A stretch of DNA of 64,000 bases from a virus. Its lineage: Duplodnaviria > Heunggongvirae > Uroviricota > Caudoviricetes. Where the stretch lies: the IMG/VR virus record IMGVR_UViG_3300034157_000063. One strand, 5' to 3'. The position numbers and the translations under genes are program-made. The notes under the pieces were generated by a model. It was not told the DNA's origin and did not search any database. It saw only the letters and a program-made list of their open reading frames with translations. Shown piece by piece: positions 5,036 to 54,694 of this stretch; position 1 is the first letter of the stretch; each line of letters begins with the position of its first letter.

Positions 5036-5067
5036 AATAAAAAACCATCATGAGATGGTTTTTATTT
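5036..5067. terminator. bidirectional terminator, copy 1 of argS-flanking repeat
   Basis: A-tract-ACCATC-ATGA-GATGGT-T-tract. Confidence 0.85.
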
Positions 5068-5086: not shown

Positions 5087-6763
5087 TTATTTATTTTCAA
5101 CCGTCATCTTTGATAAACATGGATAGGTTTCAATACCTAAGATATTACAGCCTTTCTCAATGACATCCTTCACTGCCGCGATCAAACATAATTTCTTATA
5201 CTCTTCTTCATGTCCCAATATTTTTTCACTTTCGTAATATTTGTGGAATAAAGTACATAAGCTGACTAGTTGAGTGGTTAAATAATGACTTTGATACTCA
5301 GTACTCATTTCATTGATAATCTCTTGAGTTTTCAAAATATTAAAGAATAAAGCATTTTCCTGATTATTTAAAATCAGATCATCAGTGATGGTCAATTTAG
5401 GTTCATTCATATTGTATTTCTTAAACAAAATTGAATCAATCCGCACATAAGCATTTTGAAGATAAGGAGCTGAACCACCAGAAAAGTTTAAGACATGTTT
5501 CCAGTCAAACACATAATCTTGATGCTTGCTTAATTTTAAATCATGAAATTTAAGACCACCTACAATCGTTTTATTCAACAACTCAGTTTGTGTCTCACCT
5601 GAAAGCTTTGTAAAGTGTGGAGACTTTAATAATTCATTTTTACCTTCCATTAACAAATCATCCAAATACAATGATTTTCCTGTTTTTGTTTTGATAGGTT
5701 TGTTATCTTCACCTAAGATGGTACCGAAACCCAAATGGATAAGCTTATTTTTATCGGTTGCATAACCTACTTTTTTAGCAATCATGAAGATTGTTTCAAA
5801 ATGCAGTGACTGCCGTTTATCAACCACATACACTATTTTATCTGGGTTATGTTGTTCTACCCGCCATTTGATAGCCGCTAAATCATAGAGAGCATACAAA
5901 AAGGTGCCATTCGTTTTTTTGATGACCAGCTTGTTATTTTCAAGTTGAACATACACCGAACCATTCTCATCAACACTGGCAATTTGTTTATTGATTAAGT
6001 CCACAACGATTTCATGACAGAACTGAGCAAAGAAGCTTTCACCTTTGGTATCCGCAATGGTCAATTTGAGCTTAAATTCTTTAATTGTAGATTCTAGGTC
6101 AATCAAACTAATATCGACACATTTTTGCCATAATGCTAGCAATTCATCATCAAGTTTATTTTGAAGCTTGTACGCAACATTATCAGATTCAAGTGCAAAT
6201 GAATTATCATCACTTTCTTTGGATAGGTTATAGGCAGTATAGGCGAGCTTATAATACTCAGTGAGCTTTTGATTGTCCAAGTTGTTTGCTAAATCATTCT
6301 TCATAATGTAATTGAGTAGGAAACCAAACTGATTGCCCCAATCACCAACATGATTATATGAAATAACTTCATCACCCATGTTCTGATGGCTCCGAACAAC
6401 AAAGTCGCCAATAAACATAGACCGTATATGACCGATGTGCATTTTTTTTGCAACGTTAACACCACAGTAATCGACCACCACTGTTTCTTTTGGTTTTGTT
6501 TGCACTGTTTGTGCATTCATTAAATTCATTTTGAAAGACAAAAAAGCCTTACCCGTAATTTCAATGTTTTCGTAATGAGTTGTTTTCAATAAATAAGCAA
6601 TCAAGCTGGCTGTGTCAAAGTCGCCTTTTTTATTTAATTGAAAAAGAATAGATGTTTGATAATGAAAATTTTCAAAACTTGAATACGATACATCAACCGT
6701 TAACGTGATGTTTTTTGATGTCAGATAATTTTGGATATCCGATTTAATAATGGACTTGTACAT
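5087..6763 (-). CDS. argS: arginine--tRNA ligase
   Basis: DYCGVNVAKKMHIGHIRS (HIGH), NHVGDWGNQFG, GESF, YVVDKRQxLHF, PYLQNAYVRI. Confidence 0.95.
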   Translation of the reverse strand: MYKSIIKSDIQNYLTSKNITLTVDVSYSSFENFHYQTSILFQLNKKGDFDTASLIAYLLKTTHYENIEITGKAFLSFKMNLMNAQTVQTKPKETVVVDYCGVNVAKKMHIGHIRSMFIGDFVVRSHQNMGDEVISYNHVGDWGNQFGFLLNYIMKNDLANNLDNQKLTEYYKLAYTAYNLSKESDDNSFALESDNVAYKLQNKLDDELLALWQKCVDISLIDLESTIKEFKLKLTIADTKGESFFAQFCHEIVVDLINKQIASVDENGSVYVQLENNKLVIKKTNGTFLYALYDLAAIKWRVEQHNPDKIVYVVDKRQSLHFETIFMIAKKVGYATDKNKLIHLGFGTILGEDNKPIKTKTGKSLYLDDLLMEGKNELLKSPHFTKLSGETQTELLNKTIVGGLKFHDLKLSKHQDYVFDWKHVLNFSGGSAPYLQNAYVRIDSILFKKYNMNEPKLTITDDLILNNQENALFFNILKTQEIINEMSTEYQSHYLTTQLVSLCTLFHKYYESEKILGHEEEYKKLCLIAAVKDVIEKGCNILGIETYPCLSKMTVENK

Positions 6764-6834
6764 ATTGAAGCTCCTTTTAATTATATAAAAAATAGTAATG
6801 GTTAATTTTTGATTTAATTAAAGTCGTCTCAATA
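6763..6834 (-). promoter_or_regulatory. SD-sequestering stem of argS leader (translational attenuator)
   Basis: mRNA UAUUGAG..CUUUAAUUA (6834-6815) complementary to UAAUUAAAAG..UUCAAUA (6783-6763) spanning the argS SD. Confidence 0.65.
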
Positions 6835-6847
6835 GTTTAGTGTTCAT
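6818..6847 (-). CDS. argS leader peptide MNTKLLRRL
   Basis: GGAG RBS 8 nt upstream; tandem AGA-CGA codons; lies between promoter and argS. Confidence 0.8.
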   Translation of the reverse strand: MNTKLLRRL

Positions 6848-6871
6848 TATTTTTTCTCCGATTAGTGGTCT

Positions 6872-6902
6872 ATATTAACATAAATAACCCAATGATGTCA
6901 AT
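6872..6902 (-). promoter_or_regulatory. sigma70 promoter of argS leader
   Basis: TTGACA-N18-TAATAT with extended TG. Confidence 0.65.
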
Positions 6903-6932
6903 AAAAAAACCATCATGAGATGGTCTTTATTT
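6900..6932. terminator. terminator, copy 2 of argS-flanking repeat
   Basis: Same ACCATCATGAGATGGT hairpin as 5036..5067. Confidence 0.85.
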
Positions 6933-23505: not shown

Positions 23506-23682
23506 AAGTGCCTCAGAGATGTTTGTTTAATACTTACATCTTATTCCTATTTTATAGAAAGTAAATCAATATTGTTCTTATTTACAATCAATTTACTCTT
23601 TTTTTACTTATGATTTAAGAAAAATGTTGACTTAATCTCTTTGTTTTGTTAGAGTGAAAGTAATTTCAAAAAGGACAAACAC

Positions 23683-23733
23683 ATGAAACATATTAATTTT
23701 TCAAACATTGTTGGTGGTGCCCGTCAAACTTAA
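23683..23733 (+). CDS. GlyRS leader peptide MKHINFSNIVGGARQT
   Basis: AAGGA RBS; tandem GGT-GGT; followed by terminator then GlyRS. Confidence 0.8.
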   Translation: MKHINFSNIVGGARQT

Positions 23734-23774
23734 ATGTTTTGGCGTATACCTGTTTGTCCTTTGACAATGACACG

Positions 23775-23797
23775 AACCGCCTAACGGCGGTTTTTTT
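23775..23797 (+). terminator. attenuator terminator upstream of GlyRS
   Basis: AACCGCC-TAAC-GGCGGTT + T-tract in the 5' leader. Confidence 0.85.
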
Positions 23798-23834
23798 ATG
23801 CTTGAAATTTAACAAACTAACTAGGAGAACTATC

Positions 23835-24590
23835 ATGGAATTTATTTACAACTTTAATGCTTTACCTTTTTTAAACAAACGAGACTTGATGTTGAAAGAC
23901 TATCTGATTAAACGGATGGAATTTGAAATTCAAGAGTTACTTTTTGCTCAAAATAAATCATGGCGATTTGTACAAATAGAAGCACCTTGCTTAATTCCGA
24001 GAGAATTAGTCAATGCCAATTATACAGATGAAGATATCTGGGTGCAGGAACAACATAATCATGACGCTATTGTGCTTAAACCTGAAACCACAGCAAGTTC
24101 CTATTTGTATATGGAACATCTTTTAAAATCTCAGGAATACATGCCACCATTGTGTGTATGGCAGACATCAAAGAGTTTTAGAAGAGAGCAAGATCAAGTA
24201 ACCAAACACTGTAGATACAAAGAATTCTATCAACAAGAATTTCAATGCTTATATACAAAAGACACAAAGAATAATTACCAAGAAAGTATTATAGAACCAT
24301 TGGCCCAAATATTCTTAGATGTTGTTGCTCTACCTGTCAGAATTGTGCTTTCAGATAGATTGCCTGATTATTCTTTGAAAACGATTGATATAGAAGTATT
24401 CAATAATGATAAATGGATGGAAGTGTGTTCAGTGTCATTAAGAAAAGATTTTACTTATCAGCCTATAGTTAAGAACCAACCAAGAGACTGTTTTGTTCTG
24501 GAAATCGCTTTTGGTCTTGAACGTTTAATCTATAATATTAATCAAAGACAAACAGTGTTTAAAGAATTAGTTGTCACAAATGAACTATAA
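23835..24590 (+). CDS. glycine--tRNA ligase (alpha2/GlyRS-1 type), catalytic core only
   Basis: LKPETT, KSFRRE (motif 2), KEFYQQEFQ, YSxKTIDIE, WMEVCS..RKDF, LEIAFGLERL (motif 3); no anticodon-binding domain; AGGAG RBS. Confidence 0.8.
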   Translation: MEFIYNFNALPFLNKRDLMLKDYLIKRMEFEIQELLFAQNKSWRFVQIEAPCLIPRELVNANYTDEDIWVQEQHNHDAIVLKPETTASSYLYMEHLLKSQEYMPPLCVWQTSKSFRREQDQVTKHCRYKEFYQQEFQCLYTKDTKNNYQESIIEPLAQIFLDVVALPVRIVLSDRLPDYSLKTIDIEVFNNDKWMEVCSVSLRKDFTYQPIVKNQPRDCFVLEIAFGLERLIYNINQRQTVFKELVVTNEL

Positions 24591-37462: not shown

Positions 37463-38836
37463 GTGAATTTAAAAATGCTCAACACCTTAAGTGGACAAAA
37501 AGAAACCTTCAGACCCATTAAATCTGGTGAAGTGAGTATTTATGTCTGTGGTGTTACTTTGTATGATGATATTCATATCGGGCATCTTAAAAGTATTATT
37601 TCATTTGAAGTGATGAGAAATTACTTCTTGGCAAAAGGCCAGCAAGTTACGCTTGTGCGTAATATCACGGATGTTGATGATAAGATTATTATGAAGGCTG
37701 AACAATTAGGCGTTGACCCACTGGATTTGGTGAATAGCTATATTGATAAGTTCCATGCCGTTTTAGAACAAATGCAAATTCCTATGCCGGATGTTGAACC
37801 GCGTGTGACTCAATACCTACCAGAAATTTCAGATTACATCGAAGATCTCATTGAAAATGGTACCGCTTATGTGACTGATGATGGTGTTTACTTCGACACT
37901 CAACAAAATAAACAAGAACGTTATCCGCTCTCGAAAAAGATTGTGCAGGATTTGGATGACAATTCCAGACTGGATGATAAAGCATATAACAAGAAACATA
38001 AGGCAGACTTTGCCTTATGGAAGCTTGATGACAAGTATGGATATCACAGCAATGTGTTTAGTAAGCAGGGCCGTCCCGGTTGGCATATTGAATGTTCTGT
38101 TATGCATCATCATACATTAGGTCAACATTTTGATATTCATGGGGGTGGTCGTGATCTTATTTTCCCACATCATGAAAATGAAATTTTGCAGAGTGTGGCT
38201 CACAATGGTGTCAATCCTGCGAATTACTGGCTGCATAATGGAATGATGACCAGTGATGGTAAAAAGCTCTCAAAATCGCTAGGAAACTCTATCTATGTAA
38301 AAGACATGTTAGACAGCTACTCAGGTGAAGCGTTGAAACTGTTCTTGAACAAAGGGCAATACAACCAATCACAAGAATTTAAAGAAGATGAATTACAAGA
38401 CGCACAAAACCACTGGGATAACTTTGTTCGTGATGTTCCAGAGTATCTGTTTGATAATTTAGATGATAATGTTTATTTTGAACAAGCACTCAATGCTTTG
38501 GATGATGATTTTAATACACCACAAGTCATTATTGTGCTTCATGAAGGCTTGAAGAACTTGCGTAGGTCTAAATCCTTGAATGTAGCCGAAGATGTCTTGA
38601 AAGTATTCAAATTGTTAGCGGTTGTCCCATCGGATGCTACATTAGAAACGGTTTATGAGAAATGGATGACGGAAGCAGCAAAGCCATCTGCAGAGATAGT
38701 AGAGCTTGTTCATAAACGTCAACAGGCTAAATTAGATAAAAACTATACGTTAGCTGATCAGTATCGCCAACAGGTTCAATCACAAGGTTGGCAAATACTT
38801 GATAAAGGTGATACCTTTGAGTTGCGAAAGATTTAA
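37463..38836 (+). CDS. cysS: cysteine--tRNA ligase
   Basis: YVCGVTLYD..HIGH, NITDVDDKII, GRPGWHIECS, DIHGGGxDLIFPHHENE, KLSKS, DDFNT. Confidence 0.97.
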   Translation: MNLKMLNTLSGQKETFRPIKSGEVSIYVCGVTLYDDIHIGHLKSIISFEVMRNYFLAKGQQVTLVRNITDVDDKIIMKAEQLGVDPLDLVNSYIDKFHAVLEQMQIPMPDVEPRVTQYLPEISDYIEDLIENGTAYVTDDGVYFDTQQNKQERYPLSKKIVQDLDDNSRLDDKAYNKKHKADFALWKLDDKYGYHSNVFSKQGRPGWHIECSVMHHHTLGQHFDIHGGGRDLIFPHHENEILQSVAHNGVNPANYWLHNGMMTSDGKKLSKSLGNSIYVKDMLDSYSGEALKLFLNKGQYNQSQEFKEDELQDAQNHWDNFVRDVPEYLFDNLDDNVYFEQALNALDDDFNTPQVIIVLHEGLKNLRRSKSLNVAEDVLKVFKLLAVVPSDATLETVYEKWMTEAAKPSAEIVELVHKRQQAKLDKNYTLADQYRQQVQSQGWQILDKGDTFELRKI

Positions 38837-44384: not shown

Positions 44385-45878
44385 ATGTCTAAAATAATCA
44401 TAGTTCATTCATTATCCGAATCAAAACTCAGAAAAGCCGTTGAACTTGGTGGAATGCCTCTACCCAGCATCGCGGCTATGAAACCTGATAATGAGTTTAC
44501 CCGTTTTGGTAACATCACCTTCATTCTAAAACCAGAATCTGTTAATCCAAAAGATAAGAAAAATCTATTTTTTGATCGTGATATATTTTCTCAGAGAATT
44601 CCAGAACTCTATTACGATATAGACAAGAAAGCTCTTAGCAGTCTTCATAAACAATTAGACACTATGGTCGATAACAATAAAAGTCTTGAACCTTTATTTA
44701 ATTTGTATGATTTGGATTCATTAAAAAGAAAATCATCTGATTATATTGAAGACCGTTTGAAATCAAGTCCTCTTGTTCGTTTGATGTTTATACAAAAAAT
44801 GAATCCTTCTTATGAACTTCCTACTAAGGTTGATAAATTGCAATCTGATCTTTCATCTGATCTTATTTTTCAAGACTATATGAAAAAAAGAATACACACA
44901 CTTCAACATGATGATGACTTCAAGTCAGCCCTACATGCTGTCTTAGAAAGAAGACATGCTTACTACAAAGACACTATTGGTTTGACAATTGCTGATGATA
45001 TTATGGCTGATTATAAGAAAGCTATCTTTAATCAACATGGCGATATTAATAGTTATTCAAGTGATCTTGAAAAAATTGTGAATGATGTTAAGCGTTATTC
45101 TGGTGTCTCTAAAATATTAGATATTGAGAAGGCTAGGGATGAATTAAGCAAGTTTGCTGATAGTCATACTGCTGATTACAGTGAATTCTTTTCTGACCTT
45201 ACGCAAGATATCTTTGTTAAGCCGCATTTGAGAAATGGCACCCGAAAAGTTGAATATAACTTAGATACGATTTCTAAGTATATGTTAAGACAGCAAGTAA
45301 CCGGAGCAGAAGATGTTAATGATACCAGTATTGGTAAAATATCTTCCAGTTACTCCACACAATTTACTTCTTATGATGACATGATTAGCTATGTTGATAA
45401 ATTAGACACAATGGAAGACCGTCACAATCAAACAGATGCTCTTAATAAGAGAATTTTCGATTTGGCTGAAAAAATACAGCCACACTCCCCTTATTCAAGA
45501 TTTTTTGATGTTCAAGAATATTTATCTTTGGCATTAACACGAGTCTCAACTTTAGAACAGTTTTCTACAAAATTATCTAAACAAGGTTTTGATGTTACTG
45601 CTATACCACAAGATGTCATTAATGAAGGTTTTGACATCTGTCATGGGATTAAAAATCTAAGCAGTCATTATTTTGAAGGAAAGCCACAAAAAGTTATCTA
45701 TTTTGATGACTTCCAAGCGGTAGCACTACCAAAGAATACTGCACCAGACATTATCAAAGCTCTTGATGGTAAAGTGAATATCCACTTCTATGAAACACAA
45801 GAAGAAAAGAAAGCAATATTCTCAAAATACTCATTTGATTCAGCACCTAAAAAACTCAATAAGTTAAAAAACTTTTGA
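44385..45878 (+). CDS. polyvalent-protein-type domain protein, possible ADP-ribosyltransferase fold
   Basis: VHSL..LGGMPLPSIA..FGNIT and YFEGKP motifs; Lys-rich tail. Confidence 0.45.
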   Translation: MSKIIIVHSLSESKLRKAVELGGMPLPSIAAMKPDNEFTRFGNITFILKPESVNPKDKKNLFFDRDIFSQRIPELYYDIDKKALSSLHKQLDTMVDNNKSLEPLFNLYDLDSLKRKSSDYIEDRLKSSPLVRLMFIQKMNPSYELPTKVDKLQSDLSSDLIFQDYMKKRIHTLQHDDDFKSALHAVLERRHAYYKDTIGLTIADDIMADYKKAIFNQHGDINSYSSDLEKIVNDVKRYSGVSKILDIEKARDELSKFADSHTADYSEFFSDLTQDIFVKPHLRNGTRKVEYNLDTISKYMLRQQVTGAEDVNDTSIGKISSSYSTQFTSYDDMISYVDKLDTMEDRHNQTDALNKRIFDLAEKIQPHSPYSRFFDVQEYLSLALTRVSTLEQFSTKLSKQGFDVTAIPQDVINEGFDICHGIKNLSSHYFEGKPQKVIYFDDFQAVALPKNTAPDIIKALDGKVNIHFYETQEEKKAIFSKYSFDSAPKKLNKLKNF

Positions 45879-46044: not shown

Positions 46045-46121
46045 GTCTGCGTAGCTCAGTTGGATAGAGCATCCGCCTTCTAAGCGGATGGTCGTTGGTT
46101 CGAATCCAACCGTAGACACCA
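46045..46121 (+). tRNA. tRNA-Arg(UCU)
   Basis: Cloverleaf GTCTGCG/CGTAGAC, loop CTTCTAA, TTCGAAT, CCA. Confidence 0.95.
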
Positions 46122-46553: not shown

Positions 46554-46630
46554 GGGACTTTAGCTCAGTTGGTTAGAGCGTCCGACTCATAATCGGCAGG
46601 TCGTAGGTTCAAGTCCTACAAGTCCCACCA
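46554..46630 (+). tRNA. tRNA-CAU (Ile2-like; Met not excluded), copy 1
   Basis: GGGACTT/AAGTCCC, loop CTCATAA, CCA. Confidence 0.9.
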
Positions 46631-46717: not shown

Positions 46718-46793
46718 GCTTTGGTAGCTCAGCGGTAAGAGCAGCGGTCCCTAAAACCGATGGTCACGGGTTCGAATCCCGTCCTTAGCACCA
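46718..46793 (+). tRNA. atypical tRNA with CUA (amber) anticodon
   Basis: D and T arms intact, loop CCCTAAA, CCA end; two U-U mismatches in acceptor stem; C33. Confidence 0.7.
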
Positions 46794-47326: not shown

Positions 47327-47403
47327 GGGATTTTAGCTCAGTTGGTTAGAGCATCCGACTCATAATCGGCAGGTCGTAAGTTCAAGTCTTACAAGTCCCA
47401 CCA
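47327..47403 (+). tRNA. tRNA-CAU (Ile2-like), copy 2
   Basis: Four differences from copy 1; CCA. Confidence 0.9.
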
Positions 47404-53245: not shown

Positions 53246-54694
53246 TTATTTATATTTATTAATTAATTCATCTAATTCTTGTTCAGTAAAACTACCTAAC
53301 TTATTTATAACCGATCTGAAACGATAACGTGTCATGTCTGGCCCCAGTAAGCTCATTGCATCAATTACTGAAATAGAATTTAGTGACCCAGTAATAATCA
53401 CAAACACCAATGGCATAATATCTTTCAATTTTAGATTCATTTTAGCGGCTGACGCTTTTAATGTATCCAGTATTTGAACTTCATTCCATTTCTTCAATGC
53501 TTCAATATCCCATAACATGACTTGAATGGCTTCTTTCACTTCTGCCTCTGTTAATTTCTTGTGCGTTAGTAATGAAGTATCATATTTCAAATCACCACTA
53601 TACATGAAGGCCACCAGATCATTAACCTGACTGAAGTTTTCTACACGACTTTGTATCATCGGTATCAATTTATCAAACTTATCTGTGCTGAATGCCCACT
53701 GTGATAGCTTATCTTTAAAGGTGTCTGGCGTGAGTTCTCTTAACCATAGACCATTGAGCCAAGAAAGCTTATTAACGTCGAAAACAGGGCCACCCAGTGA
53801 TACACGCTGTATATCAAAGTTATCTACCATGTCTTGCAAGGTAAACTTTTCTCTTTCATCCGGCATCGACCACCCCATACGACCCAAATAGTTCAATAAA
53901 GCTTCTGGTAGGTAACCCATGTCCTTATAGAATGTAATAGATGTAGGATTTTTACGTTTTGACAATTTACTTCTGTCCATATTACGCAACAGAGGCATAT
54001 GACAATGCTCAGGCATTTCCCAGCCAAAGTACTGATACAGTAAAACAATCTTAGGTGCAGACGGCAACCACTCTTCACCTTTCAGAACATGAGTAATGTC
54101 CATCAAGTGGTCATCCACAACGTTAGCTAAGAAATAAGTTGGTAAACCATCTTGTTTCATGAGCACTTGCATATCGACTTGCTTCCAATCATAGGTGACA
54201 GCACCACGCAACATATCATTTACAGTGCAGATACCTTCTGTTGGAACTTTCATACGGATAACATGAGAAACACCCGCATTTAGCTTACTAGCTACATCTT
54301 CTGAGGTTAATGTAAGGCAATGACCATCATACTTAGGCGATAGTCCAGCCGCTATTTGGTCTTCACGCATTTTATCAAGGCGATGGCTATCACAGAAGCA
54401 TGGGAAGGCATGTCCTTTGTCTACAAGGATTTGAGCATGTTCTTGATAAATGGCTTTACGGTCACTTTGGCGGCAAGGTTCTTCATCCCACGACAGTCCC
54501 AACCATTTCAGTGAATTTAAAATAGACTCTTCGGATTCTTTGGTAGAACGCACTTGATCAGTGTCTTCAATACGAAGAATGAACTCACCACCATGCTTCT
54601 TAGCAAAGCAATAGTTAAACAAGGCAATATAGGCGGTACCCACATGTGGATCGCCCGTGGGGGATGGTGCTACGCGAGTTCTTACTTTTTTCAT
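53246..54694 (-). CDS. gltX: glutamate--tRNA ligase (Pseudomonas-like)
   Basis: [47 protein letters not shown]. Confidence 0.96.

Follow-up and report, generated by a model that had tools for sequence, protein, structure and literature searches.

Ribosome-mediated attenuation by leader peptides is known from trpL, hisL and leuL, and from pheM-pheST, in which a synthetase is controlled. In the translational attenuators of ermC and cat-86, a ribosome stalled on the leader frees a Shine–Dalgarno (SD) sequence buried in a hairpin. Theory of the control codons in ribosome-mediated attenuation holds that, as other isoacceptors empty, one whose codons are little in demand relative to its supply stays charged (Elf, Ehrenberg; PMC1183508). 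Amino-acid biosynthetic enzymes display a cognate bias, a low content of the cognate amino acid averting failure during starvation (PMC4209129).

The arginyl-tRNA synthetase (ArgRS) gene argS described here lies in a stretch of DNA of 64,000 nucleotides, analysed as a whole and referred to as the window. With attenuators of the trpL type it shares a short translated leader carrying tandem cognate codons upstream of the controlled gene. It differs from them in that the window version has no terminator and would act on the SD, in that its target is the synthetase of a giant mobile element, and in that the argS family alternates between two architectures, an SD hairpin and a terminator. The proposed logic is that of ermC and cat-86, a leader-stalled ribosome freeing a buried SD, but the stall signal would be missing charged tRNA-Arg rather than a drug, and the leader stop codon falls within the anti-SD arm. 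As in the biosynthetic enzymes of PMC4209129 the scarce amino acid is spared; by contrast the purge in argS is near-total (5 Arg against 21–59), concerns synthetases, not biosynthetic pathways, and involves the choice of codon as well. Finally, the arrangement of a sensor on heavily used codons and a payload on a reader that is in low demand or high supply is that of selective isoacceptor charging. What is a statistical trend in E. coli becomes, in the argS family, a whole gene resting on one isoacceptor, with CGG and CGT switching by lineage. Within the literature covered, which was incomplete, neither such elements nor synthetases that are cognate-purged and rest on a single isoacceptor were found described. 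As far as sequence comparison can tell, the argS system is real, strongly selected and assembled from known principles.

Arginine content and codon choice

The argS gene (5087..6763, minus strand) encodes a 558-aa ArgRS with five arginines, R114, R124, R301, R317 and R441. As the original prediction had it, all are encoded by CGG (6424-22, 6394-92, 5863-61, 5815-13 and 5443-41, minus strand), and a recount matched its positions exactly. Arginine accounts for 0.9% of the protein, against a background of 3.1% in the window ORFs (P=4e-4), and none is present beyond five conserved columns (P=2e-8). CGG is the rarest sense codon of the window, providing 20 of the 562 Arg codons in the 71 other long ORFs, and with this codon use the chance that all five argS codons are CGG is p ~6e-8. 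The concern that CGG might be common genome-wide was not borne out, the codon being uncommon both across the window and at the related loci. A general G-ending bias of the gene was discarded as the cause, G occupying 16% of third positions at its four-fold sites. Reassignment of CGG was ruled out by the conservation of Arg at all five columns: in four of them 152–153 of 153 cellular homologues and 97–98 of 98 family members have Arg, and in the fifth 153 and 77, respectively. When the five sites were compared, their contexts differed and no common flanking DNA motif was seen.

The purge is a property of the family. Among the top 120 argS homologues (37–97% identity), 91 have six Arg or fewer; the 153 cellular homologues fetched have 21–59. 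The arginines left occupy columns which are invariant, or nearly so, in both the family and the cellular sets. Elsewhere Arg has been exchanged, largely in the manner originally proposed, for Lys: position 360 is Arg in 152 of 153 cellular homologues and Lys in 94 of 98 family members, positions 309, 360 and 524 are Arg in almost every cellular ArgRS and Lys in the family, and position 240 is Arg in 115 of 153 cellular homologues and Gln or Lys in the family. Two relatives are richer in arginine, L172 (25 Arg) and L174 (13 Arg), and the Arg leader is absent from both. The Arg-rich clade of L172, with mixed codons and no leader, nests within the argS family, which is consistent with a release of constraint. 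A GC-richer subclade, comprising L172:6001-7668 and the proteins P0090, P0092 and P0106, has regained 17–25 Arg with mixed codons, and offers a natural control for loss of the constraint.

Codon choice was compared across 16 Arg-poor loci, the window (W) and 15 relatives. The CGG of the window gene recurs as the main codon in half of these: eight loci are of CGG type (W, L001, L005, L166, L169, L170, L171 and L173), seven of CGT type (L003, L006, L007, L165, L167, L168 and L175) and one, L010, of AGA type. With L010 set aside, the 77 Arg codons of the other 15 loci comprise 41 CGG, 32 CGT, 2 CGC, 2 CGA and no AGA or AGG; in the neighbouring genes AGA and AGG make up 30–90% of Arg codons. The conserved rule is thus one isoacceptor per gene and almost never AGA or AGG, with CGG a lineage-specific choice.

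Common ancestry does not account for the shared codon, since synonymous sites are saturated and new arginines follow the same rule. When CGG loci are compared, conserved four-fold codons are identical in only 29–48% of cases; of 26 invariant four-fold columns, not one has G in all eight of these loci, and the arginines that L171 and L173 have acquired at new positions are likewise encoded by CGG. On the argS tree, which was built by a quick method without the L175 protein, genes of the CGG type do not group apart from those of the CGT type but are interleaved with them, and the syntenic L170 and L175 differ in type (CGG and CGT, respectively). Together this implies a minimum of two concerted codon switches, and probably a larger number. 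The choice of Arg codon in argS is therefore under selection. The five codons shift jointly between CGG and CGT while the remainder of the gene drifts, a natural example, unusually clean, in which selection acts on amino-acid content and on the synonymous codon alike, for translation under what would be a single charged-tRNA shortage. None of the 45 Arg codons in the leaders is CGG, which is not significant given the rarity of this codon.

The leader and its conservation

Upstream of argS a sigma-70-like promoter is predicted on the minus strand at 6872..6901 (TTGACA-18-TAATAT with an extended TG). It is the top consensus match in the region, and its position is matched in L005, L166 and L175. 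Behind it follow, on the same strand, an SD motif GGAG (6856..6859) and the nine-codon leader ORF MNTKLLRRL (6818..6847), in which AGA-CGA at 6829-6824 are the putative sensor codons; leader, GGAG and Arg pair had all been correctly recognised beforehand. SD-like motifs also precede the leaders of L005, L166, L169, L170, L171, L173 and L175.

The leader had further been predicted to pair with the SD of argS. The anti-SD 5′ arm (6816..6836, minus) covers the Leu-Arg-Arg-Leu-stop segment, and the 3′ arm (6762..6783, minus) includes the argS SD AGGAG (6775-6771) and its spacer. This pairing is the minimum free energy structure, and the duplex is among the top 2% when set against matched controls, but taken alone it is weak (−11.8 kcal/mol, z=−1.0), being no more stable than shuffled sequences. 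In the model, opening the start region of argS costs 11.2 kcal/mol, and ~3.4 kcal/mol once a ribosome sits on AGA/CGA, in keeping with the proposal that stalling frees the SD. With the ribosome at the stop codon of the leader the cost is just as low (3.3–3.5 kcal/mol at both sites), so that any switch would have to rest on dwell time. The window copy is not a classical transcription attenuator, because no intrinsic terminator or antiterminator lies between leader and argS (6818-6763). Nor did Rfam reveal a T-box or riboswitch upstream of argS, tRNAs being its only matches in the window. Provisionally, the folding models suggest a translational attenuator acting by SD sequestration.

The gene and its leader are bounded by two identical terminator-like palindromes of 16 bp, at 6909..6924 upstream and at 5044..5059 downstream, where it forms the argS terminator. 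These are the only two copies within the window, where 0.04 would be expected, and suggest either cassette insertion or duplication of a terminator.

Far from being confined to the window, Arg-codon leaders precede 13 of the 16 Arg-poor argS genes; none was seen ahead of the purged genes of L001, L167 and L168. A tandem-Arg mini-ORF is found before 12 of the 16 family genes and one of 223 other genes (Fisher p=4e-16), the leader of L173 having four spaced arginines instead. The short leaders are poorly aligned by MAFFT, and pairing was judged locus by locus. Leaders which pair with the SD were found at six loci, with differing sequences and duplexes of −9 to −18 kcal/mol (z down to −5.6); a pairing equivalent to that of the window 5′ arm is achieved through other sequence in L005, L166, L170, L175 and L010. 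When the model places a ribosome over the Arg codons, opening becomes cheaper by 5–15 kcal/mol at SD-hairpin loci, the cost falling for example from 14.9 to 4.0 in L005 and from 17.4 to 1.9 kcal/mol in L170. In L171 and L173 the model gives no Arg-specific release of the SD, and cross-pairing of hairpin arms swapped between loci gave mixed support.

Five further loci (L003, L006, L007, L165 and L169) have terminator/antiterminator leaders, in which upstream RNA captures the 5′ arm of the terminator when the ribosome is on the Arg run. In L165 the modelled terminator probability drops from 1.0 to 0.02–0.29, solely with the ribosome at codons 9–14 around three arginines. It tells against the proposed switch that, in CGT-type loci, the leader often also carries codons read by the tRNA which serves the gene. 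Judged from these comparisons, the leader appears to represent a conserved leader-peptide attenuator design with cognate control codons.

The enzyme, its proposed role and rival explanations

The argS product matches Pfam PF00750 and PF05746 and scores above the TIGR00456 cutoff. Its structure model (pLDDT 90.8; TM 0.83–0.86 to the E. coli and Neisseria enzymes) contains the class I catalytic domain with its HIGH motif, the DALR anticodon domain and the N-terminal domain. In fold, HIGH motif and intact arginine pocket it is thus like other bacterial ArgRS (TIGR00456; PDB 5yym, 6ao8), from which the family differs in its shorter N-terminal domain and in the loss of the C-terminal Met. The HIGH motif is invariant in the family, as are D98, N103, Y290, D294 and R317 in 98 of 98 members. 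These correspond to D118, N123, Y313, D317 and R340 in enterobacterial numbering, which we take to be the arginine-binding residues. The canonical A20-pocket and anticodon-contact residues, by contrast, are not kept: the N84 equivalent is Ser (S76) in 98 of 98 members, A78 has become Thr, N42 Gln and Y462 Asn or His (mostly Asn). Presumably it is with A20 and the anticodon that these four positions make contact. For the E. coli enzyme, A20 is the principal determinant of tRNA-Arg (PMC9976931). The altered residues mark the argS family as a divergent ArgRS subfamily.

We consider it likely that argS is an inducible backup synthetase for a shortage of charged tRNA-Arg, translatable during that very shortage. 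The rescue-type enzyme under leader control which had been envisaged from the window alone gains support from the conservation of purge, codon use and leader across the family. In the unstressed cell a ribosome would clear the nine-codon leader quickly and the hairpin would refold over the argS SD. Were charged tRNA-Arg to drop, chiefly the AGA reader, for which demand from the AT-rich element is heavy, the ribosome would wait at AGA-CGA, occupying the 5′ arm and, according to the model, leaving the SD free. The enzyme could then be completed, as it needs five arginines only, all on the codon in lowest demand, whose tRNA should, if selective-charging theory applies to this host, stay charged longest; in other hosts CGT may be favoured as the codon in highest supply. 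A catch-22, in which charged tRNA-Arg is needed to make its own charging enzyme, would so be avoided. Both selective-charging and cognate-bias theory are directly testable here through recoding of just five codons.

Three triggers can be considered. Failing charging capacity, with host ArgRS inhibited, outpaced or faced with poor tRNA substrates, is quite possibly the one; it is favoured because an extra synthetase cannot make arginine, and because the tRNA-binding surfaces of the family have changed whilst its arginine pocket is kept. A plain arginine famine is a more tentative suggestion, and cleavage of tRNA seems unlikely.

It is rather improbable that the shortage concerns AGA/AGG readers only, through codon mismatch with the host, or through a nuclease or loss of modification striking tRNA-Arg(UCU), the enzyme then serving the copy of this tRNA encoded by the element itself, with which it might form a semi-orthogonal pair. 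AGA or AGG occurs in 13 of 13 leaders and is absent from 15 of 16 genes, the element does encode the predicted tRNA-Arg(UCU) (46045..46121, plus), whose link to argS is conjectural, and the A20-pocket and anticodon-surface residues are unlike those of cellular enzymes. A synonymous swap would however suffice against such a shortage, yet nearly all Arg residues are gone, and CGA, CGC and CGT also appear in leaders. Furthermore this tRNA has the canonical A20, C35, U36 and A73, so that the host enzyme should charge it (identity set of PMC9976931).

A role of the five CGG codons as a second gate, limiting expression for instance to cells with m1G37-modified tRNA-Arg(CCG) rather than conferring robustness, is highly unlikely. 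It would fit the position of CGG as the window's rarest codon and the finding that CGG is the sole Arg codon at which ribosomes stall upon m1G37 loss in E. coli (bioRxiv 10.1101/2021.05.27.446073). Five scattered codons nevertheless make a poor gate, seven relatives use CGT, a major-tRNA codon, and the removal of other arginines together with the Thr and Gly purges described below points to reduced dependence.

Hardly more credit, and if anything a shade less, is due to simple coupling of translation, in which the SD would yield to any ribosome that passes or terminates, without arginine being sensed. The equal opening costs modelled at the Arg and stop codons would allow this, as would the three purged genes that have no leader, but the tandem Arg is the conserved part of otherwise unrelated leaders and the same Arg run sits in the classical terminator attenuators of relatives. 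Lastly, AT mutation bias with shared ancestry, though Arg does give way to Lys in AT-rich proteomes and the element has 33% GC, can be set aside as refuted, as it predicts AGA and not CGG, as the equally AT-rich argS of Arsenophonus (GC 25–29%) still has 21–22 Arg, and as all five codons switch together at saturated synonymous sites.

The carrier element and other purged synthetases

The closest argS homologue is 97% identical, and its 90% cluster has proteins on contigs of 1.92 and 1.85 Mb; other family members are found on contigs of 1.04–2.34 Mb. The neighbourhoods consist mostly of orphan genes. The source contigs of L001, L003, L005, L169, L170 and L174 carry OmpA, ankyrin arrays and translation genes. 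A scan of GTDB genomes by two peptide patterns found no relative above 36% identity, and isolated phages and plasmids held none above 35%; IMG/VR yielded one record, of 181 kb. The carrier would accordingly be a giant element, phage-like or plasmid-like, with a Gram-negative host, and a non-chromosomal bacterial element of ~1.9 Mb is, jointly with the backup-synthetase reading, the likely interpretation. This draws attention to a poorly characterised class of elements of 1–2.3 Mb.

The window also encodes GlyRS-like, CysRS and GluRS proteins and seven tRNAs. The GlyRS-like gene (23610-24590, plus) specifies a catalytic core of 251 aa with one Gly and no anticodon domain, preceded by a 16-codon leader containing GGT-GGT and by a terminator; its homologue in L174 (846-1604, minus) has no Gly at all. 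A shortened ThrRS, lacking the N-terminal part, has one Thr in 379–389 aa at three loci (P=2e-8), L167:441-1580, L168:3431-4585 and L169:3148-4317, in each of which it lies two genes upstream of argS and is preceded by a poly-Thr leader and a terminator. CysRS (window 37463-38836, plus; L174:2195-3742) has two Cys, which is not significant, and no leader was seen upstream of it. GluRS (53246-54694) is not purged, having 28 Glu, and is ~59% identical to the Pseudomonas and Acinetobacter enzymes.

It is attractive, albeit tentative, to consider that megabase elements are equipped with a set of minimal, self-purged synthetases (for Arg, Thr, Gly and probably Cys and Ala), each behind its own charged-tRNA sensor and with altered tRNA-contact surfaces, restoring translation after the host or its defences have disabled particular synthetases or tRNAs. 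The argS codon would then record the surviving host tRNA-Arg. Such a set would provide a possible reason for the presence of synthetases on very large mobile elements and hints at a host pressure on tRNA charging which may be unknown; the purged enzymes may also serve as starvation-tolerant or altered-specificity synthetases.

The seven tRNA genes form a cluster of which tRNA-Arg(UCU) is the first, directly preceded by the gene for a protein with a PBECR5 nuclease domain (Barnase/EndoU/colicin E5-D/RelE-like; 44385-45878, plus). A tRNA with the amber anticodon CUA (46718-46793, plus) has two U-U mismatches in its acceptor stem; despite its presence TAG is the stop codon of 8 of 72 window ORFs. 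Two near-identical tRNAs with the anticodon CAT (46554-46630 and 47327-47403), followed by similar downstream sequence, are possibly lysidine-type Ile tRNAs.
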